Assembly (NCBI GenBank): GCA_903835075.1 | Contig: CAILLM010000006.1 | Coordinates: 1-54,981, forward strand | DNA length: 54,981 nucleotides | Reading direction: 5' to 3' | Source of the DNA: Candidatus Staskawiczbacteria bacterium | GTDB taxonomy: Bacteria > Patescibacteriota > Minisyncoccia > Minisyncoccales > Staskawiczbacteraceae | Shown here: one piece after another, positions 1,119 through 50,455 of the stretch | Numbering within the stretch: position 1 is the stretch's first letter | How the letters are laid out: every line of letters starts with the position of its first letter | The notes under the pieces: generated by a model | Databases searched by the model: none | What the model was told of the DNA's origin: nothing | What the model saw: only the letters and a program-made list of their open reading frames with translations | Made by a program: the position numbers and the translations under genes

Positions 1119-1703
1119 TTACCATTTGCAACCAACGCTATTCTGCTGGGCTTGTTTTTCAGCTGATGCAATTTCTGTTTTATATTTTACGTCTGGCGGG
1201 TAAAAGCGTGCTACTGCCAAACCTTCTTGTACTAATTGAACATCCACATTTGTATTGTTTATAAAAATATACCGCAAACATCTGCCATATTGGTCTAAAT
1301 CGGTTTTGTCTTTTTCCAAAATAACTTGTTTACCTAAAACTAAATTTTCCAAGCGTTTTTTTGCTTGCTCATAACATGGGTAACCTTTTTCATCAGCATC
1401 CATGCCCAACAACCTAACGTGATAACCGCCTTCCACAACAACCGTGTCGCCATCAATTACTTTTGTGACAATTGTGTTGTTGCTAGCACCACAGGATATA
1501 GTACTTGTCGACGAATTTTTTATTATATCTGGGATAACCTTATTGCTTTCTGCCTCCCCGACTATTCCGTTATTCCGCGGAATATTGGAATAGTTATTCT
1601 GTAATCCCAAATAAACACCCACACTAATTATTAGTGCTCCCAAAATTATTGCCAAAAATATGCTTGCCCTGAGCGAAACCGAAGGGTTATTTTCTTTTAA
1701 CAT
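1119..1703 (-). CDS. Thermonuclease (staphylococcal nuclease family), membrane-anchored
   Basis: Motifs VIDGDT, VRLLGMDA, DQYGRCLRY and LVQEGLA; N-terminal TM helix. Confidence 0.92.
   Translation of the reverse strand: MLKENNPSVSLRASIFLAIILGALIISVGVYLGLQNNYSNIPRNNGIVGEAESNKVIPDIIKNSSTSTISCGASNNTIVTKVIDGDTVVVEGGYHVRLLGMDADEKGYPCYEQAKKRLENLVLGKQVILEKDKTDLDQYGRCLRYIFINNTNVDVQLVQEGLAVARFYPPDVKYKTEIASAEKQAQQNSVGCKW
1663..1686 (-). repeat. Family A palindromic repeat, in frame in the thermonuclease N-terminus
   Basis: CCCTTCGGTTTCGCTCAGGGCAAG on the minus strand; encodes NPSVSLRAS. Confidence 0.7.
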
Positions 1704-1717
1704 TATGTTATTTTAAT

Positions 1718-1761
1718 CCTTCGGCAAGCTCAGGACAAGCCCTTCGACTAACTCAGGACAA
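1718..1761 (+). repeat. Tandem pair of family A palindromic repeats (intergenic)
   Basis: CCTTCGGCAAGCTCAGGACAAG followed directly by CCCTTCGACTAACTCAGGACAA. Confidence 0.85.
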
Positions 1762-1766
1762 TATAT

Positions 1767-1794
1767 AAAAAAAGAGTCGGGATATTTTCCCGAC
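1767..1794 (-). terminator. Intrinsic terminator
   Basis: GTCGGGA/TCCCGAC stem with a U-tract on the minus strand, downstream of 1814..2533. Confidence 0.7.
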
Positions 1795-1813
1795 CTAACG
1801 ACAATTGAAAAAC

Positions 1814-2533
1814 TTATTGCCTTTGATAGATTGCCAATTGTTGTTCCCACACCTGCAAAAGTAGTCTTTGCATGGGCTCGCGAATGTATTGTTCTTGTTC
1901 TTCAAGAGCTGGCCTAAAAGGCGAACAACTGCTTTCAGCAAGAGCAATAACACCAGGATGCCGGCTTTCCATCTCGCCCAAGAGAACTCTCAGCCCCCTG
2001 ATGCCAGACAAACCAGTAAAGTTTTCCCATCCCAGTATGTACTGACCGCCTTTCGAAACTAACATGCGAGCATAATGTCTGGCGCGGGTATCACACTCAA
2101 CAACTGCTTTAAATATTCTAAAACGCGCAGATGCCTCCAAAGCAGATTGAGACCTCCCAACCACACTAGGCAGTAGCAGGACTCCCCTGTTTTCATAGCT
2201 CACTACCGCTTCTAAGGCAAGACCAAGCACAGGAGATGAAGGGTCACCATTCAAATAGTTAGGAGCTGGCTGAATTTGTCCGCATCTGTCAAAAAGATGT
2301 ACGATTTTCCCTGACCCGTCTTCGGGACTATAAAAATCGTCTTGCAACAAAGTTTCAAGCAAATCCTGAGTCAATGCGTAACTGGCAAACTGTTTGGAAA
2401 GCCAAGGCTCGTCAATCTCGTGAGCATCAAGCTCTAACTTCAAAAAACCAAACGCTTCCCTAATTATGCTCTCTTGGCTTACTAGCTGACTTTCGAGGGT
2501 GGCAACTGCCACTTCCAATTCTTCAGGTTTCAT
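1814..2533 (-). CDS. Hypothetical protein (orphan, GC higher than neighbours)
   Basis: 239-aa ORF with its own promoter and terminator; no motif recognised. Confidence 0.75.
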   Translation of the reverse strand: MKPEELEVAVATLESQLVSQESIIREAFGFLKLELDAHEIDEPWLSKQFASYALTQDLLETLLQDDFYSPEDGSGKIVHLFDRCGQIQPAPNYLNGDPSSPVLGLALEAVVSYENRGVLLLPSVVGRSQSALEASARFRIFKAVVECDTRARHYARMLVSKGGQYILGWENFTGLSGIRGLRVLLGEMESRHPGVIALAESSCSPFRPALEEQEQYIREPMQRLLLQVWEQQLAIYQRQ

Positions 2534-2574
2534 ATTTAGTATGTGGGTATTTTGGTATTCAAGGAACCGCCTTC

Positions 2575-2602
2575 ATACTAACAATTTTTAAAGATTTGTC
2601 AA
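2575..2602 (-). promoter_or_regulatory. Sigma70-type promoter
   Basis: TTGACA-16 nt-TAGTAT with a TGn extension. Confidence 0.6.
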
Positions 2603-2609
2603 CCCAAAC

Positions 2610-2645
2610 AAAAACCGCCCGCGACAATAATCGGGACGGTTTTTT
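2610..2645. terminator. Bidirectional terminator after clpB
   Basis: AAAAACCGCCCG...CGGGACGGTTTTT hairpin flanked by A and T tracts. Confidence 0.7.
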
Positions 2646-2651
2646 ATTTTT

Positions 2652-5393: not shown

Positions 5394-5501
5394 AGATTTA
5401 TAAATTAGTATTTTAAGATGTTTATTAAATAGTATATGATAATCTGCTCGCAACCATCATTAAAAAAATGGATAAAAGGTTGTAAAATTTGCTCCGTTCA
5501 T
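5374..5501 (-). repeat. 20-bp direct repeat of the clpB start (5374-5393 and 5482-5501); the upstream copy begins a 13-aa mini-ORF
   Basis: ATGAACGGAGCAAATTTTAC occurs twice; 5501..5460 reads MNGANFTTFYPFF-stop. Confidence 0.85.
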
Positions 5502-5561
5502 TTTTGATATTTTTATTTATATTATTATTACGTTCTAATTTATTATTTTAGCTCACTACTC

Positions 5562-5599
5562 ATGATAAAGCAATAGCACTCTCAAGTCAAGAGTGACAA
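5562..5599 (-). promoter_or_regulatory. CIRCE (HrcA operator) overlapping the clpB promoter
   Basis: ATAGCACTC-N9-GAGTGACAA at 5573-5599 versus consensus TTAGCACTC-N9-GAGTGCTAA; TTGACT-17-TATCAT on the minus strand. Confidence 0.8.
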
Positions 5600-5608
5600 A
5601 TCTTATGT

Positions 5609-5638
5609 AAAAAAAGGCGGGTTCTGGTGAGAACCCGC
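5609..5638 (-). terminator. Intrinsic terminator of aroF
   Basis: GCGGGTTCT-GGTG-AGAACCCGC perfect stem with a U-tract on the minus strand. Confidence 0.85.
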
Positions 5639-5650
5639 ATCATAAAAGGG

Positions 5651-6673: not shown

Positions 6674-6725
6674 GGCGGTGTCTTTCGGTTGGTTTGGTTT
6701 GGTTTAATGTTGGGAATGAACTCAC

Positions 6726-6753
6726 AAAAAAGCTCCACTTTTTGAGAGGAGCT
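6726..6753 (-). terminator. Attenuator terminator in the aroF leader
   Basis: AGCTCC...GGAGCT stem followed by a U-tract, between the leader peptide and aroF. Confidence 0.8.
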
Positions 6754-6780
6754 CATTTGAATTTTTAATTTATTTCAGAA

Positions 6781-6858
6781 TTAAATACTCAAATCAACAC
6801 CCCTCGTAGGGAAGCTAAAGTAAAAAAAACAGATTTTGTTTGAGTTAACTTTATTCAT
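6781..6858 (-). CDS. Phe/Tyr-rich leader peptide (25 aa) of the aroF attenuator
   Basis: MNKVNSNKICFFYFSFPTRGVDLSI-stop; the FFYFSF cluster lies upstream of alternative hairpins. Confidence 0.75.
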   Translation of the reverse strand: MNKVNSNKICFFYFSFPTRGVDLSI

Positions 6859-6865
6859 TAAATAT

Positions 6866-6894
6866 AATCTAACAAATTTATTTTGATACGTCAA
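6866..6894 (-). promoter_or_regulatory. Sigma70-type promoter of the leader-aroF transcript
   Basis: TTGACG-17 nt-TAGATT with TGn; the leader ATG lies 7 nt past the -10 box. Confidence 0.7.
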
Positions 6895-6897
6895 GAC

Positions 6898-8100: not shown

Positions 8101-8143
8101 ATTTATATACTTCTAAAAATTAAGATTAGTTTCACTTGTCGGC

Positions 8144-9286: not shown

Positions 9287-9326
9287 GCTAGTTAATTATG
9301 ATAGAATTATATAATAAAATCATACT

Positions 9327-9719: not shown

Positions 9720-9788
9720 TTGAACAAATTTTTTGCTTCATTCCAAATATCAGGTTGGTTGTGTACAACCTTCATCCAATACCACCAT
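9716..9788 (-). pseudogene. Orphan 3' end of a homolog of the adjacent glycoside hydrolase gene
   Basis: 9721-9788 matches 9895-9962 at 59/68 nt; it reads WWYWMKVVHNQPDIWNEAKNLFN-stop versus WWYWMKTVHNQPQIWNEAKNLFITK-stop. Confidence 0.88.
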
Positions 9789-9883: not shown

Positions 9884-10909
9884 TTATTTTGTGATGAACA
9901 AATTTTTTGCTTCATTCCAAATTTGGGGTTGATTATGAACAGTTTTCATCCAATACCACCATTCTACTCCCCAAAAGTAAAACTTGTCTAACCCAGACGC
10001 CTTAGCAAACTCAACATTTTGCTTAAATATTACTGGGTTCATTGTCTCTGCTTGCTCTTTCAAGGGAACATCATAAAATTGTCCCGAAACCCAAGGCTCG
10101 GCCTGCAGTTCTATACAAAATACTTCTTTACCAAATATTTTGTTAATAATCAAAGCTTTTCTGGAATAATATACTGGAGAGAAAAAAGAATGGAAATAAA
10201 AACCAAAACTATCAGTTATTCTTGTCCATGCTTCTCTGTACATGGTGTTGCCAACTACATCTCCAATTTTAGCTGCCCCAAACCAAGAAGAATATTCACC
10301 AGTATCAGAAACAATAACTTTTCTTGATGGATCTAAAAATTTCACTGTAGCCACCTCTTCTCTTAAAAAATCATTATTTTTATAATACCAATCAGGGCAC
10401 TCGCCAAAATAAAAAAATGGCTCATTTTCAACCTGCCAATAAATTATGGAGGGATTATTTTTGTATCTTTGGACAACTTCTTTTATATAATTTAAAGTTG
10501 CTTGTTTTTCCTGCGTCTCTTGTAATTTACTTGCCCATTTTGGAACATGGCATTCTGGCCACCTTCCGCTTTTCATTCCCACAACATATATAATTTTTAC
10601 ATTTTTCTCTTGTGCTTGAGATAATTGCCAATCAACATCATCAAAATAATATTTATCTTTTTCGCCCTCAATCCAATCCCATTGTGTATGTAATTTTATA
10701 TTTTTTACGCCCAGGTCATTTATTATGGCTGAATAAGCCTCTTTCCAGCTTAAGCCCAAAGACTGAGCCTGCATTTGAGAAAAATCCACACCCCAAGTAA
10801 TGTTTTTTTGGACTGGAGCTTTACCCACAAAAAAATAACAGAAAATAGACGCCAATAAAGCAAATATCGCCAACAATAAAATGCCAAGTCTTTTTAGTTT
10901 TTTTTTCAT
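9884..10909 (-). CDS. Clan GH-A glycoside hydrolase-like protein, membrane-anchored
   Basis: WQVENEP acid/base motif, IELQAEPW nucleophile region, N-terminal TM helix. Confidence 0.8.
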   Translation of the reverse strand: MKKKLKRLGILLLAIFALLASIFCYFFVGKAPVQKNITWGVDFSQMQAQSLGLSWKEAYSAIINDLGVKNIKLHTQWDWIEGEKDKYYFDDVDWQLSQAQEKNVKIIYVVGMKSGRWPECHVPKWASKLQETQEKQATLNYIKEVVQRYKNNPSIIYWQVENEPFFYFGECPDWYYKNNDFLREEVATVKFLDPSRKVIVSDTGEYSSWFGAAKIGDVVGNTMYREAWTRITDSFGFYFHSFFSPVYYSRKALIINKIFGKEVFCIELQAEPWVSGQFYDVPLKEQAETMNPVIFKQNVEFAKASGLDKFYFWGVEWWYWMKTVHNQPQIWNEAKNLFITK

Positions 10910-12232
10910 TTAATTTTTGCGTTCGGCAATTATTTTTTCTATATTATAGGTCCCCTTTTTCTCTATTTCCATAAAACCTTGTATGGCTAATTCAGCCAAA
11001 TCCCCAGAGTTTAGTGAATCATAAAACCATTGCTCTGCATACTTAGGGTTTTCTTGAGCCATACCACAACCAACATGCAACAACCATTTTTTATTAAAAT
11101 CTTCTTGAGAGCCTATTGGCGGAGCCACAATTATGGGCAACCCCAAGCCTGCATAAAAAGAAAGTTCGGAAGGTTTTGTCCATAAAACATCTGTTTCTCT
11201 TAATGCTTCATTGAATGTTTTAAAATATTCATCTGTTGTGATGCCAGATAAAATATGCACCCAACCATCTAATTTTAATTCTTTAATGTTATCTGCATAA
11301 TATTTTCTTAATTCTTCCCTTACACCAACTGCAATAATAAATCTTAGCTTCTTATTCTTTATTTTTTCTTTCAAGCTATTTATTGCTGCCAATGGTATTT
11401 CTTTTTGAGCGCCTGCGCCCCCTATGGAAAACATTATTGTTAGGGGATGATTTGATTTTTCTGGCAACTTACCCAAAGTTGCCTTCACCAAGGGGTTATA
11501 TATATTTCTATATTTTTTATAAGGATCTAAATTTATAAGCCTATGCCTTAAGTCATCTTTTAAAATTTCCAAATCTTCTCCCAAGTTTTCTTTTGGTAGG
11601 GGAAAACCTGTTAAAATTATATTTTTAGGGTCAACACCATAAAGTTTTAACCTGTCACGAGTCCAAGTGTTAGGAGTAAAATATTTAATTTTGCTTTTAT
11701 GCGGTTCTAATGAAACCCATGCCCTTGAGATGTCAGCATCACATATAACGCAATAAACATCATTTGGATACCCAATTGTTTCTGCCATAAAAGACGGAGT
11801 AAAAAAAGTAGATACTATTGGCAAAGGATTTTTTTTAAACCTTTCTATTAAATCCCTACCCCACCCTTTTTTTATAAAACTAAAAATATTTTTTAAAACA
11901 AAATCTGGTTGAGATAAATCTCTTTTAGGATAATATGCTAAAATCTTTTGAAATTTATCTAATATGGAAAACGCTAGGTTACCCAATAATGGGATATTTT
12001 TAAAACGTGAAATAAATTCATACAAAGAACGAGTTTGTTGCCAAAACTTTCTATCTTTTTCTGGAATACCGCTATAATTGTTGGCATTTATTACTCTGCC
12101 ACCAAAAGCCATGCCCCTTAAAGGATATGCTGTTCTTTGATGACCATAGCCCATGTCAGCAGCTATTACCCACGCCCTTCGACTTTGCTCAGGACCTTCG
12201 GCCTTTTTTTGTTTATCCAAATTCATATTCAT
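10910..12232 (-). CDS. GT-B fold glycosyltransferase-like protein (MGDG-synthase-related)
   Basis: MGYGHQR, VICDADI, TGFPL, TKPSEL and GSQEDFN parallel the GT28 motifs. Confidence 0.7.
   Translation of the reverse strand: MNMNLDKQKKAEGPEQSRRAWVIAADMGYGHQRTAYPLRGMAFGGRVINANNYSGIPEKDRKFWQQTRSLYEFISRFKNIPLLGNLAFSILDKFQKILAYYPKRDLSQPDFVLKNIFSFIKKGWGRDLIERFKKNPLPIVSTFFTPSFMAETIGYPNDVYCVICDADISRAWVSLEPHKSKIKYFTPNTWTRDRLKLYGVDPKNIILTGFPLPKENLGEDLEILKDDLRHRLINLDPYKKYRNIYNPLVKATLGKLPEKSNHPLTIMFSIGGAGAQKEIPLAAINSLKEKIKNKKLRFIIAVGVREELRKYYADNIKELKLDGWVHILSGITTDEYFKTFNEALRETDVLWTKPSELSFYAGLGLPIIVAPPIGSQEDFNKKWLLHVGCGMAQENPKYAEQWFYDSLNSGDLAELAIQGFMEIEKKGTYNIEKIIAERKN
12175..12203 (+). repeat. Family A repeat, in frame in the N-terminus of 10910..12232
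   Basis: CCCTTCGACTTTGCTCAGGACCTTCGGCC; encodes AEGPEQSRRA on the minus strand. Confidence 0.75.
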
Positions 12233-14382: not shown

Positions 14383-15114
14383 TCATTGCCTAAGTTGGCA
14401 ATCTTTAAAATATGATGATATTTTTTTTACTATTTGCTCTACGGTTTCTCGCTCAAATGGTCTAACTTTCTCAAACTCTGGGTCAATAGTTTTTTCTGCT
14501 CTAAAATTTTGCAAATAATACTTTACATCTGGCCCACCTATCCATTTAGCAATATCAATAAACTCTTCTGGTGTGTGCACAGTATTTACAACTGTTGTGC
14601 GAAACTCCCAATCAAAACTGCCTGCCCGCCCTGAGCTTGCCGAATGGGTTTTTAAAAATTCTACACTTTCTTTTATGTGGTCTATGGTAATTCCCTCTAT
14701 CATTAAATTTTTATATGCAGGGTTGTTTTGTGCAGTTTTTATGTCCATTGCCACATAATCAACCATTCTTGCTTCCACTAACTCTTTTAACATTTTTGGA
14801 TTAGAACCATTTGTGTCTAACTTTACTAAAAATCCTAAATGTTTTATTTTCTCTATAAAGCGTGGCAAATCTTTATTTATTGTTGGTTCTCCCCCACAAA
14901 TTACAACACCATCAAGCTGGCCCTGTCTTTGTTTTAAAAAATTAAAAAATTCCTCTTCTTGCATTCTTGGTTGTTTGGCAATTTTTAACGGTAAAACTAA
15001 CTCTGCCGAATAACACCACGGACATCTAAAGTTACATCCAGCCAAAAAAACCACACAGGCAATTTTGCTTGGAAAATCTATTAATGTTGATTTTTGTAAT
15101 CCTGCTATTATCAC
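14383..15114 (-). CDS. nrdG: Anaerobic ribonucleotide reductase activating protein (radical SAM)
   Basis: GCNFRCPWC (CxxxCxxC), GGEPT, KLDTNG and EFRTT; nrdD nearby. Confidence 0.9.
   Translation of the reverse strand: MIIAGLQKSTLIDFPSKIACVVFLAGCNFRCPWCYSAELVLPLKIAKQPRMQEEEFFNFLKQRQGQLDGVVICGGEPTINKDLPRFIEKIKHLGFLVKLDTNGSNPKMLKELVEARMVDYVAMDIKTAQNNPAYKNLMIEGITIDHIKESVEFLKTHSASSGRAGSFDWEFRTTVVNTVHTPEEFIDIAKWIGGPDVKYYLQNFRAEKTIDPEFEKVRPFERETVEQIVKKISSYFKDCQLRQ
14618..14648 (-). repeat. Family A repeat, in frame in nrdG
   Basis: CCCATTCGGCAAGCTCAGGGCGGGCAGGCAG; encodes HSASSGRAGS. Confidence 0.8.
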
Positions 15115-15116
15115 GG

Positions 15117-15139
15117 TCGTGTGAGCGGGGCGAACACGA
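15117..15139 (-). repeat. Family A-like hairpin abutting the nrdG start
   Basis: TCGTGTTCGCCCCGCTCACACGA on the minus strand. Confidence 0.55.
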
Positions 15140-15214
15140 TTGCTTCGGAAATTAGGCCGTGGGCATATCTATACATTTAGGCCGAATTTACGCTGAACAC
15201 CTTACTCTATTTAA

Positions 15215-15244
15215 TTAAGCTACTTCTTGTTGGTAACAACTTTC
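15215..15244 (-). pseudogene. Orphan 3' end of a Cys-rich family paralog
   Basis: Reads ESCYQQEVA-stop, matching the C-termini EACYQQEIV-stop and EQCYQQEII-stop of the two full paralogs. Confidence 0.75.
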
Positions 15245-15245
15245 G

Positions 15246-15264
15246 TCCTTCGGCAGGCTCAGGA
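15246..15264 (+). repeat. Family A repeat (intergenic)
   Basis: TCCTTCGGCAGGCTCAGGA. Confidence 0.85.
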
Positions 15265-15275
15265 TTCGGCCCCAT

Positions 15276-16997
15276 TTATACAATCTCTTGCTGATAACAG
15301 GCCTCGCAGTAAACTATTTCCGGTCTGTCGGGCGCATATGACGTTTCGAATTCATTGGTGCAACCTTCTTTCATGCAATGCCTATGCCAAAGCTTAATGG
15401 GGTTACGCCATGCAAACCTTGCATAATGCCTACAATTCTGACAAATTTGCGGTAGGGGTATATTAAGTTTTTTATAAAATTGAAGTTCTTGATTGGTAAT
15501 TTTAAATACTCCCGCACATTCATGATTGCATGCACCTGCATGAACGCAACTTATGACTTCTTTTAATATATTGTCATCTACATTTTTAGCATCATCTGGC
15601 AATTCAGAGCCTAATTTTGTAACATTAAATTTTTTGTTTTTGGCGTCTTGCCATATAAAACCATGATGTTCTGCCTCTTCTTTTGTAAAAGGGAAAAAAT
15701 CATTAGCAAACGACTGGTTATAAGCTATGGGACTCATTTCTGCTGGGAAAAATTCTCCATATTTATAAATACAACCATTTTTGTCTACATAGGGCATGTC
15801 ATTCATATGTTGGATAATTTTTGGAACAAGAGTCTCGTATTCTTCTTTTGTGTATTGTTTATTCAAAATACAATACTGTTTGTTACGCAAACTTACACAC
15901 CCAAACAATGAAGACGAATTTTGAACACAATAATAGCAATAAGATAGATTCGAAATAGTTGAGTAACACTGTGACGAAAAGCTAATATTGTATGCTCCAA
16001 TTCCCACTATAACCGATTCATAAATTAGTTCACTTCCCTCTCCAAAACCACTATGGTCATAAGAGTCTTTTGCAGGTCCAATACTAAAATTATGGCAATA
16101 TTTAACATTTTCACCATTAATAACTCTCCAACAGTATTGAGCATTTTTTGAATCTTTGATGTAATCTCCCAAAACATTAGCATTGTGCCTGCCGTGCATA
16201 AATTTATTCGGGAATTTTATCCAAAAACTAATGGCCTTATTTCGCATTTCCTCAATATTTTTTCTAGAGCTCAAATTAAATTCTTTTAACTTCTGAATGT
16301 ATTCTTCTTTTGAGTAGGCTTGGTTAAAAATATGATATGCCTTGCTTTTTAAATTAATACATCCAAAACAATTGTTACACCCTGTGCAATTCTTAGAAAA
16401 AATTATATCATTGCAATCTTCACAATCTACTGAATATAGCACCTTATAGCATTTAACCAAATTAACAGAATCATAACAAAGTTCTGACTCAATAAACATA
16501 TAACAGTCAAAAATATCTTTAGAGTTTGCTCCCCAAATAGAATAAGCAGAATTTTCCACAAAAGAAGCTGCAAAAGTGAGATAGCAATCTTTTGGGTCTG
16601 TGGCATTCATGCAATAGTCGCTTCTTACGGGATTGGTAAGAGACCTAGACATTAATGGAACTTGATAAAATAAATCTTTAAATTGCTCAAAAAATGGTCT
16701 TGAAAAATCATAGTCTCTGCCATATTGCATTGGATCCCAAGAATCAGAATACCATTCTGCCGTATCTAGCACTTTTACTGGAGAATCTTCATGGTAATTA
16801 GAAAAAATCTCTTTCCCATGAATATCTTTTTTTCTAAAAAGCCTCCATTCATTTCTCCACGCAAAGCGACGCTGTGTCCTACAATCTGGACAAAACGTTG
16901 GTGCCGGTACTTTTATTTTTTCGTAGAACACAAAATCATCGGGCTCAATTACAAAGTCCTTTTTACAATTTTGACATGTTTTAACTTCTTGCTCCAT
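15276..16997 (-). CDS. Cys-rich protein with N- and C-terminal zinc-ribbon motifs, function unknown (paralog 1)
   Basis: CQNC..CPDC N-terminus, central periodic Cys repeats, CQNC and CEAC C-terminus; paralog at 46732..48459. Confidence 0.88.
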   Translation of the reverse strand: MEQEVKTCQNCKKDFVIEPDDFVFYEKIKVPAPTFCPDCRTQRRFAWRNEWRLFRKKDIHGKEIFSNYHEDSPVKVLDTAEWYSDSWDPMQYGRDYDFSRPFFEQFKDLFYQVPLMSRSLTNPVRSDYCMNATDPKDCYLTFAASFVENSAYSIWGANSKDIFDCYMFIESELCYDSVNLVKCYKVLYSVDCEDCNDIIFSKNCTGCNNCFGCINLKSKAYHIFNQAYSKEEYIQKLKEFNLSSRKNIEEMRNKAISFWIKFPNKFMHGRHNANVLGDYIKDSKNAQYCWRVINGENVKYCHNFSIGPAKDSYDHSGFGEGSELIYESVIVGIGAYNISFSSQCYSTISNLSYCYYCVQNSSSLFGCVSLRNKQYCILNKQYTKEEYETLVPKIIQHMNDMPYVDKNGCIYKYGEFFPAEMSPIAYNQSFANDFFPFTKEEAEHHGFIWQDAKNKKFNVTKLGSELPDDAKNVDDNILKEVISCVHAGACNHECAGVFKITNQELQFYKKLNIPLPQICQNCRHYARFAWRNPIKLWHRHCMKEGCTNEFETSYAPDRPEIVYCEACYQQEIV

Positions 16998-17017: not shown

Positions 17018-17041
17018 TCAGGTTACCATATGGTAACCTGA
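17018..17041. promoter_or_regulatory. Perfect 24-bp palindrome (candidate operator or recombination site)
   Basis: TCAGGTTACCATATGGTAACCTGA, 20 nt upstream of the Cys-rich gene ATG. Confidence 0.7.
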
Positions 17042-17261: not shown

Positions 17262-17289
17262 TGTCAGGCTACCATATGGTAACCTGACA
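17262..17289. promoter_or_regulatory. 28-bp palindrome with one mismatch, second copy
   Basis: TGTCAGGCTACCATATGGTAACCTGACA, 11 nt upstream of the HTH ATG. Confidence 0.7.
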
Positions 17290-21033: not shown

Positions 21034-21987
21034 TTAAAATTTTGTTGCTATAACTGTAATTTTTAATTCTCCTTTTTTTAAATTATTATCTTTAACTGCA
21101 CCAAAAATTATTTCTGCTTTTGAGTCTACGTTTTTGGTTATAACTTTTGCTGCTTGCTGTATTTCATTTAACGTAACATCATTTCCAGCAACAGAAAATA
21201 AAACTCCTTTAGAACCTTGGATTGAAAAATCTAGCAATGGCGAACTAATAGCTTTTTCAGCTGCCACTACTGCCCTGTTTTCCCCCAAAGCTCTTCCTGC
21301 CCCAAACAATGCTTGACCAGAATTTTTCATAATAGAAACCACTGAAGCAAAATCAATGTTTATAATTCCAGGCACTAAAATTAAATCTGTAATTGATTGT
21401 ACTGCTTCCCGCAAAATATCGTCACAAATCAAAAATGCTTCTGAAACTGTAGTTTTTTCGTCAATAATTTTTAAAAGCTTATCATTAGATATAACCAACA
21501 AAGAATCCACATGGCTGCGTAAATTTTTTATTGATTCTACTGCAATGTTTTTTCTTTCTTGTCCTTCAAAAGAAAACGGCGTAGTAACCACCCCAATAGT
21601 TAAAATGCCAAGACTTTTTGCAATCTCGGCAACAACAGGCGAAGCCCCCGAACCAGTTCCTCCGCCCAACCCACAAGTCACAAAAACCATATCAGCCTTG
21701 CCCGCCGTAGCCTTGGCAGAGGCGGGTCCCCCACATAACGCTTCAATAATTTCTTCTCTAGATTCTTCTGCTGATTTTCTTCCCAAATCCGCATCCATTC
21801 CTGTACCAAGTCCCTTGGTAGTATCTTTCCCAATTAAAATTTTCTTATGACATTTTGAAAAGTGCAAAGCTTGAGCATCAGTATTTAATGCCATCAATTC
21901 TGCTCCCTGCATTTCGAACTTAGCCATTCTAGAAACCGTGTTAGAGCCCGAGCCTCCAACTCCTATAACTTTTATACTTGGTTGCAT
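21034..21987 (-). CDS. ftsZ: Cell division protein FtsZ (divergent, no C-terminal tail)
   Basis: IKVIGVGG, NTDAQAL, GLGGGTGSG and PFSFEG; adjacent to ftsA. Confidence 0.93.
   Translation of the reverse strand: MQPSIKVIGVGGSGSNTVSRMAKFEMQGAELMALNTDAQALHFSKCHKKILIGKDTTKGLGTGMDADLGRKSAEESREEIIEALCGGPASAKATAGKADMVFVTCGLGGGTGSGASPVVAEIAKSLGILTIGVVTTPFSFEGQERKNIAVESIKNLRSHVDSLLVISNDKLLKIIDEKTTVSEAFLICDDILREAVQSITDLILVPGIINIDFASVVSIMKNSGQALFGAGRALGENRAVVAAEKAISSPLLDFSIQGSKGVLFSVAGNDVTLNEIQQAAKVITKNVDSKAEIIFGAVKDNNLKKGELKITVIATKF
21698..21726 (+). repeat. Family B repeat, in frame in ftsZ
   Basis: TTGCCCGCCGTAGCCTTGGCAGAGGCGGG; encodes PASAKATAGK. Confidence 0.88.
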
Positions 21988-37281: not shown

Positions 37282-37365
37282 GCCGAGGTGGTGAAATTGG
37301 CAAACACGTCGGACTCAAAATCCGATGCCCTTAAAAGCTTGGGGGTTCAAGTCCCCCCCTCGGCA
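37282..37365 (+). tRNA. tRNA-Leu(CAA)
   Basis: Acceptor stem GCCGAGG/CCTCGGC, anticodon arm TCGGA-CTCAAAA-TCCGA, long variable arm, T arm GGGGG-TTCAAGT-CCCCC; CCA not encoded. Confidence 0.95.
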
Positions 37366-37387
37366 CACTTCGATAAACTCAGCGCAG
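37366..37387 (+). repeat. Degenerate family A repeat directly 3' of the tRNA
   Basis: CACTTCGATAAACTCAGCGCAG. Confidence 0.6.
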
Positions 37388-37392
37388 ACACT

Positions 37393-39913: not shown

Positions 39914-40473
39914 TTTCTTATAATTTTTATATTTTCTCCTGACAAATCTATTATGGCTGATGGCTTATTTTTTGGCAACTCTCCAGCGTCAGCAACAAGT
40001 ACATCTTCATTTTTAAATTGCCTCAAAACATCTTTTATTTTTACTGTTGCTGGTTTACCAGAAATATTAGCTGAAGTCTGGGCTAGTGGCTTCTTAAATT
40101 CATCTAAAACCAAACTTAAAAACTTATACTTTGGAATTCTAATTCCAATTGTTTTTATCGGGCCTCGCCCGCCGAAGCCTTGGCGAAGGCGGGAATTTAA
40201 AATTAATGTTATATTATTATGTTTCAAAAGTTCTGCTTCGTTTTCATTTACAAAAGCAACCTTACTTGCTATTTTGACATCTTTAACAAAAACTCCCAAT
40301 GGTTTTGACTTGTCTCTTCTTTTAATTTTAAAAATACTTTCTACTGCCTTTTTATTTGAGGCATCGCAAACCAACCCATAAACCGTGTCTGTAGGAAAAA
40401 CCAAAACTGCTCCTTTTTTAAGAGCAGTAATTATTTTGCTTATATTATTTTTATTGGCTTTTATTATTTCCAT
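39910..40473 (-). CDS. tsaC: L-threonylcarbamoyladenylate synthase (TsaC/YrdC)
   Basis: PTDTVYGL, KRRDKSKP, GIRIP and TSANISG. Confidence 0.92.
   Translation of the reverse strand: MEIIKANKNNISKIITALKKGAVLVFPTDTVYGLVCDASNKKAVESIFKIKRRDKSKPLGVFVKDVKIASKVAFVNENEAELLKHNNITLILNSRLRQGFGGRGPIKTIGIRIPKYKFLSLVLDEFKKPLAQTSANISGKPATVKIKDVLRQFKNEDVLVADAGELPKNKPSAIIDLSGENIKIIRK
40168..40193 (+). repeat. Family B repeat, in frame in tsaC
   Basis: CCCGCCGAAGCCTTGGCGAAGGCGGG; encodes SRLRQGFGG. Confidence 0.88.
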
Positions 40474-41194
40474 TTAAAAAATATTCTAATTTTTTGACAT
40501 CTTCGGGTCTTCCGAAGTCCATCCAAAACCCATTAATTTTATTTATTTTTACCCCTTTCTCCTTAGCCAATAAAGAAACCGCATCTGTAATTTCGTATTC
40601 TCCTCTGGGAGACTTTTCTATTTGCCCCAATTTATCAAAAATTTCAGGAGTAAATTTGTACATACTCACATTTATTAAGTTGCCAAAAAACTCTTTGGCC
40701 CGCCCTGAGCCGAGCTGAAGGGGCTTTTCTACTATTTTTGTTAAAAACTCGCCATCGGCAACCAATACCCCAAAATTTTCTGGATGCTCATTCTCTATCC
40801 CAGAAACATAGCTAAATTCATCATCTATATTTATTGCTTTTAAGTCTTCCGCTGAATAATAGTTGTCCCCACTTACATATAAAAATTGCTCGTTTATATC
40901 CTTAACACACATCAATGGCACAGCTGTCCCATTTTTTTCATTAAAGTTAAAAAACTCAAATTGATTAATAACTTTTACATTATACTTATACTCTTTCAAA
41001 AATTCTTCTATCGACTGACCCTGGTACCCAACAATCAAAGTAATATCTTTATAGCCCGCTTCCAATAAATTATCTAAAACATAAGCCAAAAATGGCTTGC
41101 CGTTAACTTCAATCAAATGCTTTGGCTTATCTTGAGACAATTCTCCCATGCGGGTCCCCTTGCCTGCAGCACAAATAACAACTTTATTCACCAT
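40451..41194 (-). CDS. Sugar-phosphate nucleotidyltransferase
   Basis: AAGKGTRM, KPKHL, VEKP, SPRGEYEITD and WMDFG. Confidence 0.9.
   Translation of the reverse strand: MVNKVVICAAGKGTRMGELSQDKPKHLIEVNGKPFLAYVLDNLLEAGYKDITLIVGYQGQSIEEFLKEYKYNVKVINQFEFFNFNEKNGTAVPLMCVKDINEQFLYVSGDNYYSAEDLKAINIDDEFSYVSGIENEHPENFGVLVADGEFLTKIVEKPLQLGSGRAKEFFGNLINVSMYKFTPEIFDKLGQIEKSPRGEYEITDAVSLLAKEKGVKINKINGFWMDFGRPEDVKKLEYFLNGNNKSQ
40697..40723 (-). repeat. Family A repeat, in frame in the nucleotidyltransferase
   Basis: GCCCTTCAGCTCGGCTCAGGGCGGGCC; encodes PLQLGSGRA right after EK. Confidence 0.78.
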
Positions 41195-41750
41195 AGCCAA
41201 GATTAAATGCTTTAATATTAAGTTCTAAATATTTTTCAGGGATAACGTTTTTTATAGCTGTTAATGCAGACTCTTTTTTAATTGGCATTAATTTATTGGC
41301 AACAGCATGCCCCACCATGTACAAAGTACAAACAACTTCATTTTGCAATTTTTCTTTACAATCTTCAGATGCTGGCACCAAATAAAAATTACTTTTAAAG
41401 CCTCTAAGTTGTTTTATAATTTCTTCTTTTGTTGGAGCTCCAGGAATTGGTAAAATATAATTATTAACCAAAAGTCTTGTTTGTTTGCCAGCCTTAGCTG
41501 ATTCTCTCAAACCTTCCATTGCTTCCAAGGCTAAAATTAAATCTGCTTGCCCATTAGAAACCATAGGTGAAAAAACTTTTTTGCCAAACCTAATATGAGC
41601 CTCAACGCTCCCACCTCTTTGTGAAAGGCCATGAAGCTCAGAAGATTTTACATCATACCCCTCAACAACTGCTGCTTCATCAATTACTTGAAGCAAGGTA
41701 ATTATTCCCTGTCCACCAACTCCTGTTAAAATTAAATTAAAATTTTCCAT
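41184..41750 (-). CDS. iorB: Indolepyruvate:ferredoxin oxidoreductase beta subunit
   Basis: GVGGQG, ELHGLSQRGGSV and NIKAF. Confidence 0.9.
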   Translation of the reverse strand: MENFNLILTGVGGQGIITLLQVIDEAAVVEGYDVKSSELHGLSQRGGSVEAHIRFGKKVFSPMVSNGQADLILALEAMEGLRESAKAGKQTRLLVNNYILPIPGAPTKEEIIKQLRGFKSNFYLVPASEDCKEKLQNEVVCTLYMVGHAVANKLMPIKKESALTAIKNVIPEKYLELNIKAFNLGYGE

Positions 41751-43374: not shown

Positions 43375-43375
43375 T

Positions 43376-45811: not shown

Positions 45812-45858
45812 AGTATTTTCCTATAATAGCACAATCATATAAATTTTAAAGCCCCAAC

Positions 45859-45885
45859 AAAAAACCGCCCTTTGGGGCAGTTTTT
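45859..45885. terminator. Terminator after tatD
   Basis: AAAAAACCGCCC-TTT-GGGGCAGTTTTT. Confidence 0.65.
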
Positions 45886-45886
45886 A

Positions 45887-46729
45887 CTATATTTTAAACA
45901 ATTTTTTAGCGTTTGCAGTTGTTGCAGAGGCAACTTCATCAAAACTTAGACCTTTTAGATCGGCTATTTTCTGGATAACGTGTTTTACAAATATTGGCTC
46001 GTTTCGGGCGTCCTTCGCTGTTCCCTCCTTCGCCAAGGCTACGGCGGGCAAGGGTGTTAGATAAGGGCAGTCAGTTTCAACTACAATTTTATCTAAAGGA
46101 ATTTTTCTAATGATTTCATCAATATCAAATTTAAAAATAATTCCATTAATTCCAATACAAAAACCTAAAGCTAAATATTTTTCTGCTTCTTCCCATGTTC
46201 CTGTAAAACAATGAATTGTTCCTGAGACTTTGTGTTTTTCTAAAATTGCCAAAGCATCTTCATGGGCCATTCTGCAGTGCACAATTAAGGGCAGGCCCAA
46301 CTCCTCTGCTAACTCAATTTGCTGAATAAAAACTTTTCTTTGATTTTCTTTAAATTCTTCTTTTTTTGTTGTGCCTTTTGGTTTGTAATAGTAGTCCAAA
46401 CCAACTTCACCAATTGCCACCACTTTTTTTGACTTTGCTAATTCTCTGTATTTTTCCTTATCAAAAACCTCTCCAAGGGGAGCAAAATCACCTTCATCTA
46501 AGTCCATATGCAACTTCATTAAATCAGTTTTTATATGAATTGGGTGCATTCCAATTGCAGCATATATTCCTTCATTTTTTTCTGCCAACTCAATAGCATG
46601 TTGTGAGGTTTCATATTTTGTACCAACATCTATGCAAACACCCCCCGCCACTTGCGTGCGTTTTATTACCTCACCCCTATCGGCATCATACGCCTTAAAA
46701 TTTAAATGACTATGTGTGTCTATTATCAT
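45887..46729 (-). CDS. tatD: TatD family hydrolase
   Basis: IDTHSH, GMHP, IGEVGLDY, HCR, HCF and ETDCPY; start reassigned to 46729. Confidence 0.95.
   Translation of the reverse strand: MIIDTHSHLNFKAYDADRGEVIKRTQVAGGVCIDVGTKYETSQHAIELAEKNEGIYAAIGMHPIHIKTDLMKLHMDLDEGDFAPLGEVFDKEKYRELAKSKKVVAIGEVGLDYYYKPKGTTKKEEFKENQRKVFIQQIELAEELGLPLIVHCRMAHEDALAILEKHKVSGTIHCFTGTWEEAEKYLALGFCIGINGIIFKFDIDEIIRKIPLDKIVVETDCPYLTPLPAVALAKEGTAKDARNEPIFVKHVIQKIADLKGLSFDEVASATTANAKKLFKI
46023..46051 (-). repeat. Family B repeat, in frame in tatD
   Basis: TTGCCCGCCGTAGCCTTGGCGAAGGAGGG; encodes LPAVALAKEG between PYLTP and RNEP. Confidence 0.88.
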
Positions 46730-46731
46730 GA

Positions 46732-48459
46732 TTATATTATTTCTTGTTGATAACATTGCTCGCAATAGACTATTTCTGACCTATCTGGTGCATAAGAGGT
46801 TTCAAATTCATTGTTGCAACCTTCGTTCATACATTTTCTGTGCCAAAGTCTCATAGAACTTTGGTTTTTAACTCTTCTTACGTGTCTACAATTATGACAC
46901 AAATGCGGAATCGGCAACTTATGAAATCTATAAAAATCCAATTCCTGCTTTGTAATTTTGAAAGCCGTTGTGCATCTACAAGCACATTCGCCTTTGTGGG
47001 CACAACCCATAGTTTCTTTTAATATGTCATCTGTAACGTCTTTTATATTATCTGATAGTTTCTCTGACTCCAATGTAACTTTATAATCTTTTTGCCCAGC
47101 TTCTTGCCACCTGAAGCCTTGGTCTAAAGCTTGCTGCTTGGTTATAGGGAAATCATCTGCAGCCACTGTTTCATTATAAGCAAACGGAGCAAGCTCTGGC
47201 GGGAAAAATTCTCCATATTTATATGTCCTGCCTTTCACATCAACATACGGCATTTCGTCCATGTGCTTAATAATCTTTGGCACCAACTCCTCATACTCTT
47301 TTCTAGTATATTGTTTATTAAAAATACAATATTGTTTTTGTTGCAAGCCCACACAGCCGAAAAGGTTAGACGAAGAATTGCATAACATGCAATAAGTACA
47401 ATTATGTGCTGCTTTTGTAACTCTGTAACTCAGCTTTATATTAGAGCATTCTTCTCCGCAACTTGATACTTCATATATAAGCTCTATATTTTGCCCGTAA
47501 AGCGAAACGTCCATGGCATCTTTAGTGGTTGGAGTTATCATATATTGAATATACCTACAGTCTTCGCCGTTTTGGACATAATAAGAATCGCGAACATTTT
47601 TAGAATTGTTAATATACTCTCCGGAAATGTTGAAATTATGTTTTCCGTGGGCAAAACGCACAATACTTTTTGAAAAAATATCCTCAACTTTCTCTTTAAA
47701 CGCTTCTACATTCTTTGCTGACCCAAAATCAAATTCCGCAAATTTTTTCTTATATTCTTCTTTGCTGTATGGCTGATTAAAAATATGATATTGCTTGTTG
47801 CGCAAATTAACGCAACCAATACAATTCATACAACCCTGCAAATTTTTAGAAAACCAAATATCCACACAATCCTCACAATCGGTTGAAAAAAATACTTTGC
47901 TCGATTTAACTACATAAAATGATTCATAGCAATATTCCGAAAATTGTAACCTTGTAGTGTCGATACAATTTTTGATATTATTTGCCCAAGCCGAATACAT
48001 ACAATCCTCGCCCCACGTGACAACAAAAGTTAAATAACAATTTTTTAAGCCAGTTGCTCCCGAGCAATAATCACTATTTTCATCATACCACATCGTCTGA
48101 CTGGCTCTAGGAACTTTTAAAGATAACTCTCGGAGCTGTTCAAAAAATGGCTTAGAAAAATCATAATCTTTTTCATATTCCATCGGGTCCCATTTATCTG
48201 AAAACCAAATGTCTTTTTCATAAACCTTGTATGGAGAATCCGGATGAATTATAGAAAAAATTGTTTCTCCGCTCCAGTCGCTCTTCCTTTTATAAAGCAC
48301 GCGGAAATCTCTCCAAGCCAGACGCCTTTGAGCACGACATTTTGGACACCAAGTTGGCGCTGGCACCTTCATTTTTTCATAGAATGCAAAGCCATCTGGC
48401 TCTATAGTAAAGTCTTTTTTACAGTTTTGACATGATTTAGCTTCACTCCTTTCTTCCAT
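46732..48459 (-). CDS. Cys-rich zinc-ribbon protein, function unknown (paralog 2)
   Basis: Shares CQNCKKDF, KVPAPT, YKYGEFFP and NEFETSYAPDR..IVYCE.CYQQEI with 15276..16997. Confidence 0.88.
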   Translation of the reverse strand: MEERSEAKSCQNCKKDFTIEPDGFAFYEKMKVPAPTWCPKCRAQRRLAWRDFRVLYKRKSDWSGETIFSIIHPDSPYKVYEKDIWFSDKWDPMEYEKDYDFSKPFFEQLRELSLKVPRASQTMWYDENSDYCSGATGLKNCYLTFVVTWGEDCMYSAWANNIKNCIDTTRLQFSEYCYESFYVVKSSKVFFSTDCEDCVDIWFSKNLQGCMNCIGCVNLRNKQYHIFNQPYSKEEYKKKFAEFDFGSAKNVEAFKEKVEDIFSKSIVRFAHGKHNFNISGEYINNSKNVRDSYYVQNGEDCRYIQYMITPTTKDAMDVSLYGQNIELIYEVSSCGEECSNIKLSYRVTKAAHNCTYCMLCNSSSNLFGCVGLQQKQYCIFNKQYTRKEYEELVPKIIKHMDEMPYVDVKGRTYKYGEFFPPELAPFAYNETVAADDFPITKQQALDQGFRWQEAGQKDYKVTLESEKLSDNIKDVTDDILKETMGCAHKGECACRCTTAFKITKQELDFYRFHKLPIPHLCHNCRHVRRVKNQSSMRLWHRKCMNEGCNNEFETSYAPDRSEIVYCEQCYQQEII

Positions 48460-48468
48460 AATTTGTTT

Positions 48469-48488
48469 AGGTTGCCCTAGGGCAACCT
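48469..48488. promoter_or_regulatory. Perfect 20-bp palindrome, covariant of the 17018/17262 motif
   Basis: AGGTTGCCCTAGGGCAACCT, 9 nt upstream of the paralog 2 ATG. Confidence 0.7.
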
Positions 48489-48495
48489 GGGACTT

Positions 48496-49917
48496 TTATT
48501 TTTCTATTCGTGGAAATAATGGCACTGATTGTTTATTTGCCAACTGTTGTAATATTTTTTCTGCAATTTCGGGCAAAAAGGGTTGCAACAAAATTCCGAT
48601 TTCTTTTATGGCAAAAAATAAATCACTTATAACTTGCTGGTTTTGAGTTTGCCACAACTTTTCTTCATTTATATATTTGTCACAAAAACCAATAATTTCC
48701 CAAACACTTGCTAAAGCTTCATTAAATTTAAATTCTTCTAAAGATTTTTTGTAATTTTGTTTAGCTCCTTTAATTGCTTCTGTTATTTTTTTGCTCGGTT
48801 TCGATTCCTTAAATTCAATTTTAGATGAAATTCCCAATGTTCTAGCCACTAGATTTCCAATTCCACCGGCTAAGTCTGAATTGTACCTTTGTTCAAATTT
48901 TTCAAAAGTAAAATCTCCATCTTCAGTTGAAACAATTTCACGAAGCAAATAATACCTAACTGCATCAACTCCATATTTTGCCACCAACTCAAACGGATCA
49001 ATTACATTACCCAAGGACTTAGACATTTTTTGGCCATCAACATTTATAAACCCGTGTACAAAAACAGATTTCGGCAATTCTAATTTTGCTGACAAAAGCA
49101 TGGCTGGCCAAAAAATTGTATGAAACTTCATTATGTCTTTTCCTATGCAGTGTACATCGGCTGGCCATAATTTTTTAAATTGCTTTGCTTCTTGGTCATA
49201 TCCAATAGCTGAAATGTAGTTTGGCAAAGCATCACACCAAACATACATTACTTGCTCTGAATCACCAGGAACTTCAAACCCCCAGTATTTATCTTTTGTC
49301 CTAGAAAAACTAACGTCATCCATGCCCTGTTTCAACATGGCCAAAGTCTCATTCTTTTTTCCTTCGGGGATAATTTTTAATTTTCCACTCTTAATTATTT
49401 TTTCAATTTGCTCTGTATATTTTGAAAGTTTGAAAAAATAGTTTTCTTCTTCCACCAACTCCAATTCCTTTAAATGAATTACACACTTTCCATCAATCAT
49501 TTCTTTTTCGGTTTTAAAAGCTTCGCAACCAGGGCAATAATAACCTTTATATTTTTTCTTATAAATATCTCCACTTGCATCTAATTTTTCCCAAAGTTTT
49601 TGTACCGCTGGTTTATGCCTAAGCTCATCAGTGGTTCTAATAAAATCACTATTAGATATATTTAAAACCTTTGTCAGATTTCTAAATTTCTCTGAAATTT
49701 CATCAGCATACTCTTTTGGTTCTTTGCCTAGCTCTCTGGCAACTCTTAAGGTTTTGATACCATGCTCGTCTGTACCAGTTAAAAAAAATACTTCTTCTCC
49801 CAAGCTTTTATGATATCTTGCTAATACGTCTGCCTGCACAGCTTCCAACGCAAAACCAATGTGCGGAGGCGCATTTGTGTAAGGAATACTAGTTGTGATA
49901 TAAAATTTTTTTGACAT
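48496..49917 (-). CDS. metG: Methionine--tRNA ligase (short form)
   Basis: HIGF, GTDEHG, YVWCDAL, GKDI and KMSKS. Confidence 0.96.
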   Translation of the reverse strand: MSKKFYITTSIPYTNAPPHIGFALEAVQADVLARYHKSLGEEVFFLTGTDEHGIKTLRVARELGKEPKEYADEISEKFRNLTKVLNISNSDFIRTTDELRHKPAVQKLWEKLDASGDIYKKKYKGYYCPGCEAFKTEKEMIDGKCVIHLKELELVEEENYFFKLSKYTEQIEKIIKSGKLKIIPEGKKNETLAMLKQGMDDVSFSRTKDKYWGFEVPGDSEQVMYVWCDALPNYISAIGYDQEAKQFKKLWPADVHCIGKDIMKFHTIFWPAMLLSAKLELPKSVFVHGFINVDGQKMSKSLGNVIDPFELVAKYGVDAVRYYLLREIVSTEDGDFTFEKFEQRYNSDLAGGIGNLVARTLGISSKIEFKESKPSKKITEAIKGAKQNYKKSLEEFKFNEALASVWEIIGFCDKYINEEKLWQTQNQQVISDLFFAIKEIGILLQPFLPEIAEKILQQLANKQSVPLFPRIEK

Positions 49918-49963
49918 AATATGTTATAATTATCTAATTCTATAACTTTTTAACTAAATTTCA

Positions 49964-50455
49964 ATGATTTTATTTGTACACATGTTGTTTGGTGCTGCTG
50001 TGGGGTCTTCTATGAAATATATACCACTAGCCATAATTATGGCATTTTTAAGTCACTATTTCTTAGATTTCATTCCTCACATAGATTATGATGTGCGAAC
50101 AAAAAAAGGAAAATATTTATACGGACGTCTACCCGCAATTACAAAAGTATTTTTTGACATGTGCCTAGGATTTTTACTTATTTTTATATTTTCCAAATCA
50201 ACCCTGCCTACTGGCAAGCAAACTATAATTTATCTATATGCAATCATAGCAATTATTCCAGACAGTTTGACTGTTTTGAGTGGCATTTTTCCAAATAAAA
50301 TATTAAAGGCTCATACCCATATTCATACTCAAAAGGTCCACTTTTTAAAGGAAGACCCTTCGGCAGGCTCAGGGCAAGAAAAAATCTCCAGGTTTTGGAG
50401 AATTTTTAGCCAAATAGCCACAGTTATAATTTCTATAATTCTAATCAGACTCTAG
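49964..50455 (+). CDS. Hypothetical membrane protein (metal-dependent hydrolase-like H/D motifs)
   Basis: HMLFG, SHYFLDFIPH and IIPD motifs; several TM segments. Confidence 0.7.
   Translation: MILFVHMLFGAAVGSSMKYIPLAIIMAFLSHYFLDFIPHIDYDVRTKKGKYLYGRLPAITKVFFDMCLGFLLIFIFSKSTLPTGKQTIIYLYAIIAIIPDSLTVLSGIFPNKILKAHTHIHTQKVHFLKEDPSAGSGQEKISRFWRIFSQIATVIISIILIRL
50356..50378 (+). repeat. Family A repeat in frame, plus a degenerate CCTGCCTACTGGCAAGC hairpin near 50203-50219
   Basis: CCCTTCGGCAGGCTCAGGGCAAG encodes PSAGSGQ. Confidence 0.85.

Follow-up and report, generated by a model that had tools for sequence, protein, structure and literature searches.

Relationship to Described Hairpin Repeats

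Three kinds of described repeat resemble family A, a 23–24-base imperfect DNA hairpin that occurs between genes and in frame within genes along a 54,981 nt stretch (the window) of a Candidatus Staskawiczbacteria genome (contig C6 of G000, the genome under study; 794 kb, 35% GC). The NTS and SRM repeats of Ssn nucleases (cd10448) are short, directional, multicopy hairpins with an unpaired 5' tag, found beside the gene of a single-domain GIY-YIG protein of about 90 aa (Chenal et al. 2025, PMC11893778). The CGTC and GTAG repetitive extragenic palindromic (REP) sequences are stem-loops of 20–40 bp, tagged at one end by a tetranucleotide; they fall into sub-families whose stems are compensatory, some copies lie in frame in open reading frames (ORFs), and the CGTC type was reported without a dedicated transposase (Di Nocera et al. 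2013, PMC3733652). Rickettsia palindromic elements (RPEs) are palindromic repeats carried in frame by apparently functional housekeeping genes (via PMC3733652). Family A is like each of these in the features listed, and the GIY-YIG protein proposed below as its partner, encoded on contig C4, is like the prokaryotic Slx1-like/UPF0213 proteins, matching 1zg2 and 1ywl. Both were called bacterial Slx1-family proteins; Slx1-like GIY-YIG proteins were predicted to be repair enzymes, and the available text describes no association with repeats (Dunin-Horkawicz et al. 2006, PMC1564403).

The differences are as clear. None of 75 family A copies fits the published degenerate SRM pattern, family A lies upstream of its partner gene and not on both sides as Ssn repeats do, and 55% of its copies are in ORFs, compared with 2% of NTS in N. 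meningitidis (PMC11893778). The main text of that paper, in its available part, mentions neither Patescibacteria nor the candidate phyla radiation (CPR). The partner protein is unlike Ssn in having UPF0213 proteins as its best structural relatives. In contrast to CGTC REPs, the tag is CYTG and not CGTC, TGTC or CCTC, the outer stem is 4 bp long instead of 8–9 bp and AT-starting, and there is no CCA tail; the CGTC tag of RPE-4 and RPE-6 is likewise missing (PMC3733652). Family A strings are absent from the available text and supplements of the same paper, the consensus figures of which were not compared, and the family A motifs are absent from the available part of PMC6006769. Where TGTC does appear as a family A tag, it arises solely through overlap with a TCC stem. 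CGTC-3 REPs have a similar core, and kinship with the G-A core of family A is possible. GTAG REP/RAYT systems differ in that family A has no GTAG tag and flanks no Y1 HUH gene. RPE-1 is much longer, and RPEs give one conserved peptide in another phylum, whereas family A is read in five strand and frame combinations. Miniature inverted-repeat transposable elements, which have inverted repeats at both termini and a target duplication of fixed length, differ too, since family A has a one-sided tag, a variable net gain of 4–9 codons and no constant duplication, as judged against relatives at 81% identity.

The initial annotation, made from the sequence alone, had compared the repeats with RPEs and REP sequences; these are fair analogies, but family A is a member of neither described family. 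It probably works like NTS/SRM, tagged REPs and RPEs, and by the features compared it is not a member of the SRM, CGTC/GTAG REP or RAYT groups. In the searchable literature, which excludes most subscription journals and bioRxiv supplements, no description of family A or of such repeats in the CPR was found. Family A is a real, phylum-wide insertion family, and most likely a single-stranded DNA (ssDNA) hairpin element associated with a UPF0213-like GIY-YIG nuclease.

Copy Number and Structure

The strict core of the element, TTCGRY-N2-3-RCTCAG, was matched 8 times in the window (200 dinucleotide shuffles gave 0.015 on average and never more than 1) and 69 times in the G000 genome, where a reversed-pattern control gave 0. 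Thirty-eight of the 69 copies (55%) are inside ORFs and 31 are intergenic. A looser pattern gave 86 matches in the same genome, against 5–19 in Markov simulations. Among 79 genomes of the family, 75 have at least one strict copy (range 0–80), and a scan of the phylum matched the family A pattern in 157 of 201 genomes, with at least five copies in about 54 of 200 by a hand count, a level never reached by the control (at most four). All ten places listed in the initial annotation carry the stated or a related sequence. Its consensus holds less evenly: eight of the ten fit the strict core, the copy listed at 40697 has a G to A change in the core, and the one at 15117 belongs to a long-stem subfamily outside the consensus (five copies in G000).

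On the strand that carries CTGAG, a unit consists of a 5'-CYTG tag, a 4 bp outer stem and an invariant GA opposite GA, followed inwards by a G-C pair, then a bulged pyrimidine, and lastly a loop of 2–3 nt that is closed by C-G (or T-A). The core is set by the search pattern, so only the counts for stem, loop and tag are free to vary. In 75 genome copies the stems were CCC/GGG (31), TCC/GGA (11), TCC/GGG (6), CAC/GTG (3) and TGG/CCA (2), and mismatches at the three stem pairs, read on the CTGAG strand, were G-T in 15 cases and A-C in 5. The stem covaries, and is under constraint at the DNA level. Stable DNA mini-hairpins have sheared G-A pairs and GNA triloops, and the GC-GAA-GC nested in the long form is likewise a DNA mini-hairpin motif. 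The most frequent tags were CCTG (24), CTTG (17) and TTTA (6). Pairing falls off past the four outer pairs and the tail is T-rich. The name palindrome, as first given to the repeats, is apt insofar as a hairpin is present, but the palindrome is weak, having a 4 bp outer stem and non-canonical pairs.

Copies in Coding Sequences

Five copies in the window lie within genes, and the peptides first assigned to them were all found in the ORFs named. Three of the gene labels hold, namely thermonuclease (PF00565), nrdG (TIGR02495, NrdG2) and nucleotidyltransferase (PF00483); the gene described as glycosyltransferase-like matches DUF6938, with a weak glycosyltransferase match. The peptides had been called unrelated and read in both orientations and different frames, which is only partly the case, as not all are unrelated, four of the five copies share the strand from which they are read and three share a starting frame.

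At three sites the comparison with orthologs is exact. In the sugar-phosphate nucleotidyltransferase (NTP_transferase; 40451..41200, minus strand), a 24 nt copy with one core substitution (40699..40722, hairpin on the plus strand) adds 24 nt, or 8 aa, after an invariant EKP motif. Twenty-seven of 29 orthologs are empty and exactly 8 residues shorter, and the other two hold other GC-rich repeats at that site; the G004 and G021 genes carry family A elsewhere in the gene (G004 is the sister genome of G000, and other G numbers denote relatives). In the anaerobic ribonucleotide reductase activase NrdG2 (14383..15114, minus strand; above the TIGR02495 cut-off), a 24 nt copy (14625..14648, plus strand) adds 8 aa between the helix at residues 144–156 and the strand at 167–175; 28 of 29 orthologs are empty, and that of G012 is filled. 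A small hydrophobic membrane protein (49964..50455, plus strand), for which no Pfam or NCBIfam family was found, has gained a net 8 aa (PSAGSGQ) from a 23 nt copy (50356..50378, minus strand), with 14 of 18 orthologs exactly empty, those of G005 and G021 filled with family A and two of other lengths. The initial annotation had named orthologs of equal length as the finding that would speak against insertion; at these three sites the orthologs without the motif are shorter by exactly 8 residues.

The two remaining coding copies are in variable N-termini and give no clean indel. The thermonuclease (SNase; 1119..1703, minus strand) contains a 24 nt copy with a CTTG tag and a GAA-loop hairpin (1663..1686, plus strand) encoding PSVSLRAS near its N-terminus, where seven of eight orthologs are 4–10 aa shorter; in the G021 ortholog this spot is taken by another repeat family. 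The DUF6938/glycosyltransferase-like gene (10910..12232, minus strand) has a copy (12175..12202, minus strand) to which a further, partial 5' unit is attached; the copy encodes EGPEQSRR in the N-terminal leader and is also present in G004 and G024. The alignments leave out one truncated row for the membrane protein (L118), partial rows for the glycosyltransferase-like protein (L092, L094, L096–L098) and L128–L130 for the thermonuclease.

Mapping onto structures, as had been suggested, was done on AlphaFold models. The nucleotidyltransferase insert block is predicted at a pLDDT of 55, against 88–90 for the protein, and the NrdG2 insert is modelled as a helix-strand connector (pLDDT 71); both are in low-confidence loops of otherwise confident predicted folds. 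The insert thus lies in a loop in two of the five proteins, according to the predicted models, and at the N-terminus in two others.

The same picture was obtained at genome scale. About 770 kb of G004 was compared with G000, giving 507 reciprocal best hits with a median identity of 77%, and 29 family A insertion blocks were present in 26 of the 507 ortholog pairs. Their net lengths were 4 (one block), 5 (five), 6 (three), 7 (six), 8 (twelve), 9 (one) and 17 residues (one). If other GC-rich inserts are included, a class defined by a crude filter, 95 of the 507 pairs are affected. Peptide loops derived from DNA elements are therefore present in about 5% of conserved proteins from family A alone, in CPR genomes that are supposed to be streamlined, and such loops matter for annotation, alignment and phylogenomics of these organisms.

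Junctions vary, and those compared have no constant target duplication; net gains are mostly 5–9 codons. When metagenomes were searched for close strains in which the sites are empty, nothing exceeded 58% identity. In Logan run contigs from one study, which may be the source, the 40697 copy was bridged in two runs and the 50356 copy in three, with zero differences, and among the joints listed none skips a family A copy, although contigs drop rare variants. An assembly artefact is thus unlikely, since contigs bridge the copies. Chance or convergent peptide sequence could appeal to the weak palindromy, but these explanations, together with assembly artefact, are hardly tenable, being refuted by 8 copies where 0.015 are expected, by readings in five strand and frame combinations, by the exact indels and by the bridging contigs. 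Like RPEs, family A is found as an in-frame insertion in conserved genes that is missing from their orthologs, and its copies are almost certainly insertions.

Orientation and tRNA Genes

Insertions of the element are found in intergenic positions, behind tRNA genes and, in frame, in proteins. Intergenic copies in the window include a head-to-tail pair (1717..1739, with a TCC/GGA stem, and 1740..1762, both minus strand) and the long-stem copy (15112..15142, plus strand), which has the same tandem G-A core with another stem. A copy with a CAC stem (37366..37388, minus strand) begins right after the discriminator base of tRNA-Leu(CAA) (37282..37365, plus strand), and this is one of six among the 45 tRNA genes of G000 at which an element begins just past the discriminator base.

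Coding and intergenic copies are oppositely oriented (Fisher P = 2e-7). In coding copies, 31 of 38 are read from the TTCG strand, and a lower ORF cut-off gives a split of 32:6; the ORF calls are crude. The TGA within CTGAG shuts one frame, which accounts for an expected ratio of 60:40 only (P = 0.001 for 32 of 38). Two relatives agree, with 28:5 in G012 and 17:6 in G017. Among intergenic copies, 25 of 31 have the CTGAG (hairpin) strand on the G-rich strand that carries the majority of genes. A default orientation is likely to be set by replication or transcription, and to be flipped within genes because the peptide or the mRNA is under selection.

A function of the hairpin in RNA, as mRNA stabiliser, terminator or tRNA trailer, has been proposed for REPs and might also explain the conservation here: the hairpin strand is the sense strand in 21 of 27 copies between co-directional genes, and G-T and tandem G-A pairs fit RNA as well as DNA. 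It is very improbable, however, because 31 of the 38 coding copies and all six tRNA-adjacent copies are transcribed from the opposite strand, an Rfam search of the sequence matched the tRNA solely and left family A unmatched, and such a role leaves the making of copies unexplained.

A Small GIY-YIG Nuclease as Candidate Partner

G000 encodes six small GIY-YIG proteins in addition to UvrC. One of the genes (C4:65588-65845) sits between two tRNA-Met genes and is preceded by two family A units, one with a long loop, at the tRNA end, and an inverted short one 5 bases before its ATG. The best PDB matches of its product are the UPF0213 proteins 1zg2 and 1ywl. A hairpin was found within 250 nt of homologs of this nuclease at 16 of 21 distinct loci of at least 55% identity, 4 of 12 at 50–55%, 1 of 21 at 45–50% and 4 of 34 below 45% (duplicates and rows with fewer than 55 aligned residues were left out), and a control gave 3 matches in 98,399 nt. 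In the nuclease's own subclade, all eight rows (six distinct) are flanked by the hairpin. The association reaches records titled Levybacteria, Blackburnbacteria, Kaiserbacteria, Chloroflexi and Pirellulales. Eight genomes of the family in which a homolog is hairpin-flanked contain a median of 29.5 copies, compared with 8 in the 70 others (P = 7e-4, kin not being independent). This comparison supersedes one based on an E-value cut (13 genomes, median 38 versus 6.5), which mixed two nuclease clades. The tree of these nucleases does not include rows L003, L005, L190, L196 and L200. Two proxy rows (L178 and L181) with the C-terminal motif of cd10448 nest within the broad nuclease clade, on a long branch with weak support, and this motif is missing from the C4 protein. 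The pairing of hairpin and nuclease is well supported but correlative, and is judged to be genuine with good probability.

The explanation favoured here, with somewhat better than even confidence, is that family A is a non-autonomous ssDNA hairpin element with a cognate UPF0213/Slx1-like GIY-YIG nuclease. The nuclease, encoded outside the window, would recognise family A as single-stranded DNA, bind the CTGAG strand and cut close to the tag, in the manner of SsnA on NTS. The freed hairpin would then be joined into new sites by recombination or end-joining of the host, for which transforming or lagging-strand ssDNA may be used, and only frame-preserving events at termini and in loops would survive, mainly in the TGA-free orientation that gives small polar peptides. 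The locus set offers a concrete candidate enzyme–substrate pair for in vitro testing, and if the pairing is true, site-specific ssDNA nucleases extend past the published Ssn set to UPF0213-like proteins.

Several observations weigh against this account. In a sister nuclease clade at the same tRNA-Met locus, an upstream hairpin is present in 0 of 10 loci (one has a downstream hairpin), and some of the genomes with this clade are rich in copies (52 in G017, 38 in G015 and 37 in G008). G005 (53 copies) and G021 (50) gave only distant nuclease matches, without a hairpin, and three genomes with a hairpin-flanked nuclease hold only 13–17 copies. Small GIY-YIG genes, like family A, favour tRNA 3' ends, and the adjacency of hairpin and nuclease could therefore partly reflect a shared target. 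Thirty of the 50 matches to nuclease homologs came as loci. The coding orientation in G024 is 7:7, without bias. Junctions were read against relatives at no more than about 81% DNA identity and are imprecise, so that exact junctions and target duplications cannot be fixed from these genomes. Folding with ViennaRNA gave no significant stability (z-scores of -1.0 to +1.2), a result that is uninformative because standard energy models have no terms for sheared G-A pairs. Finally, GIY-YIG nucleases cut DNA but are not known to join it.

It is rather improbable that the hairpin is spread by a different enzyme or by an error of replication (template switching, a recombinase of phages or directed at tRNA genes, or an HUH transposase), with the GIY-YIG gene as a passenger of the tRNA hot spot or the hairpin as its regulatory element. 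The copy-rich genomes in which no hairpin-flanked nuclease was detected speak for this, as do the exact start of the element at tRNA 3' ends and the bias of intergenic hairpins to the G-rich, majority-gene strand; strand bias of this sort is known for IS200/IS605 ssDNA elements. The core also occurs in viral contigs with GTTC, CYTG and TGTCA tags, where 135 loci gave no GIY-YIG match within 300 nt, and at C10:15552 of G000, compared with G024, it has the opposite orientation between unchanged stems. Against this, the association climbs steeply with identity to one nuclease clade, across records of several taxa, and the other five small GIY-YIG genes of G000 have different palindromes or none, never family A. 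The only Y1 transposase-like gene has different palindromes as well. This gene, the sole PF01797 match, was rejected as a partner, the nearest family A pair being about 800 nt off and past another ORF. A search for IS91-type Y2 transposases gave no match, which is uninformative because the controls gave none either; the CTTG and GTTC tags resemble IS91 targets.

The Y1/RAYT-like gene (C8:99542-100270) has the same near-perfect 23 nt palindrome on both sides, unrelated to family A. The other five small GIY-YIG genes (L002–L006; C2:64548, C9:15975, C2:48432, C1:18422 and C4:5087) mostly have inverted repeats of their own, and several are located at the 3' ends of tRNA genes, the tail of the tRNA being duplicated there, which suggests several nuclease–palindrome pairs within one genome. 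From NCBIfam the small GIY-YIG proteins received no useful name. In the hairpin-less sister clade (L248–L262), the gene occupies the slot between two tRNA-Met genes and its stop codon overlaps the next tRNA.

Site Reuse among Relatives

A quick LG+G4 tree of 18 genomes and three genes places G000 and G004 as sisters (SH-aLRT 99). Trees forcing G000 together with G012, which shares the NrdG2 insert, were rejected (p-AU 0.0002), as were those joining it to G005 and G021, which share the membrane-protein insert (p-AU 0.002). Copies were mapped in G012 (63, with loci for 60 of 80 matches), G017 (51) and G024 (25), and 11 of the 65 evaluable coding copies of these genomes coincide with a G000 copy, one of them offset. 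Among the eight copies that G000 shares with G012 or G017, seven are empty in G004 and one is unclear. Several shared sites have common rare variants or identical junctions, and some copies are intact in G000 and decayed in G004. This site reuse may stem from repeated insertion at hot spots, from lateral transfer of short patches or from precise loss.

The insertion proposed in the initial annotation stands, but the selfishness attached to it is a matter of interpretation, because the hairpins may instead have a domesticated role in the host. By analogy with SsnA and NTS in Neisseria, they might be marks on the DNA for a nuclease by which natural transformation is tuned, and would spread and persist by short-patch recombination between lineages together with selection, and not by selfish copying. 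This is possible, if unlikely, and is compatible with the favoured explanation. The coincident sites, their absence from the sister genome, the shared variants and junctions, and the copies intact in G000 but decayed in G004 all agree with it, as does the comEC gene in the window. So too do three of the 265 distinct copies examined: each has a new 3' end on one side and a duplicate of the old one on the other, an arrangement that a join anchored by homology would produce. One of these, which has a partial 5' unit, is in the window (15246..15270, minus strand). It separates the current 3' end of a Cys-rich gene from a second version of the ten final codons of this gene family (15215..15245, minus strand), which comes right after the hairpin and is like the 3' end of the G004 ortholog. 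The others are two C2 copies, also in the Cys-rich paralog family, and the three cases may be a single event. Against a domesticated role, the flanks of the shared NrdG2 site fit vertical descent, G000 being closer to G004, so that any transferred patch would be shorter than about 40 nt, and a range of 0–80 copies within one family is more burst-like than would be expected of a maintained signal.

A more far-reaching reading, offered tentatively and considered doubtful, is that a clade of UPF0213 GIY-YIG proteins of about 85 aa drives a reversible write-and-erase system in the CPR. These proteins would recognise a tandem G-A ssDNA hairpin that repeatedly enters the same housekeeping codons across species and is excised from them with precision or brought in by lateral patching; with sister hairpin families, this would reshape the loops of as much as one fifth of the proteins in a streamlined genome.

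Other Repeats and Genes

A second GC-rich hairpin family is in frame in ftsZ (21695-21726, +11 aa relative to G004), a Sua5/TsaC gene (40162-40193) and tatD (46017-46059, +9 aa), and occupies family A sites in relatives (the thermonuclease gene of G021 and uvrC of G004). A third palindrome family gives STLPTGKQ at about 50200-50225 in the same membrane protein as the 50356 copy; in this loop G018 has the third family and G017 has family A. Further GC-rich in-frame inserts relative to G004 are found at about 2705 (clpB/clpC, +9 aa) and about 14292 (comEC, +6 aa). In the nucleotidyltransferase genes of G024 and G004 (L010 and L012), a short palindrome swaps six bases just after EKP with the length unchanged, and its 3' arm is already present in empty alleles, as template switching would give. 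A family A-like match at C9:43767 of G000 (also in G024, row L505) is in a putative T-box leader, and may be an old insertion or chance.

The Cys-rich proteins of about 570 aa (15276-16997 and 46732-48459) have no Pfam match, and the first also has no NCBIfam match; there are 12 paralogs in G000 and 22 matches in G004, often in tandem. A pair of 24 nt perfect or near-perfect palindromes (17018-17041 and about 17262-17288) encloses about 220 nt, and the same type of palindrome follows several Cys-rich paralogs in G000 and G004. Through a 68 nt direct repeat, 87% identical (9721-9788 and 9895-9962), the 3' end of a glycoside-hydrolase-like gene recurs just downstream of this gene.

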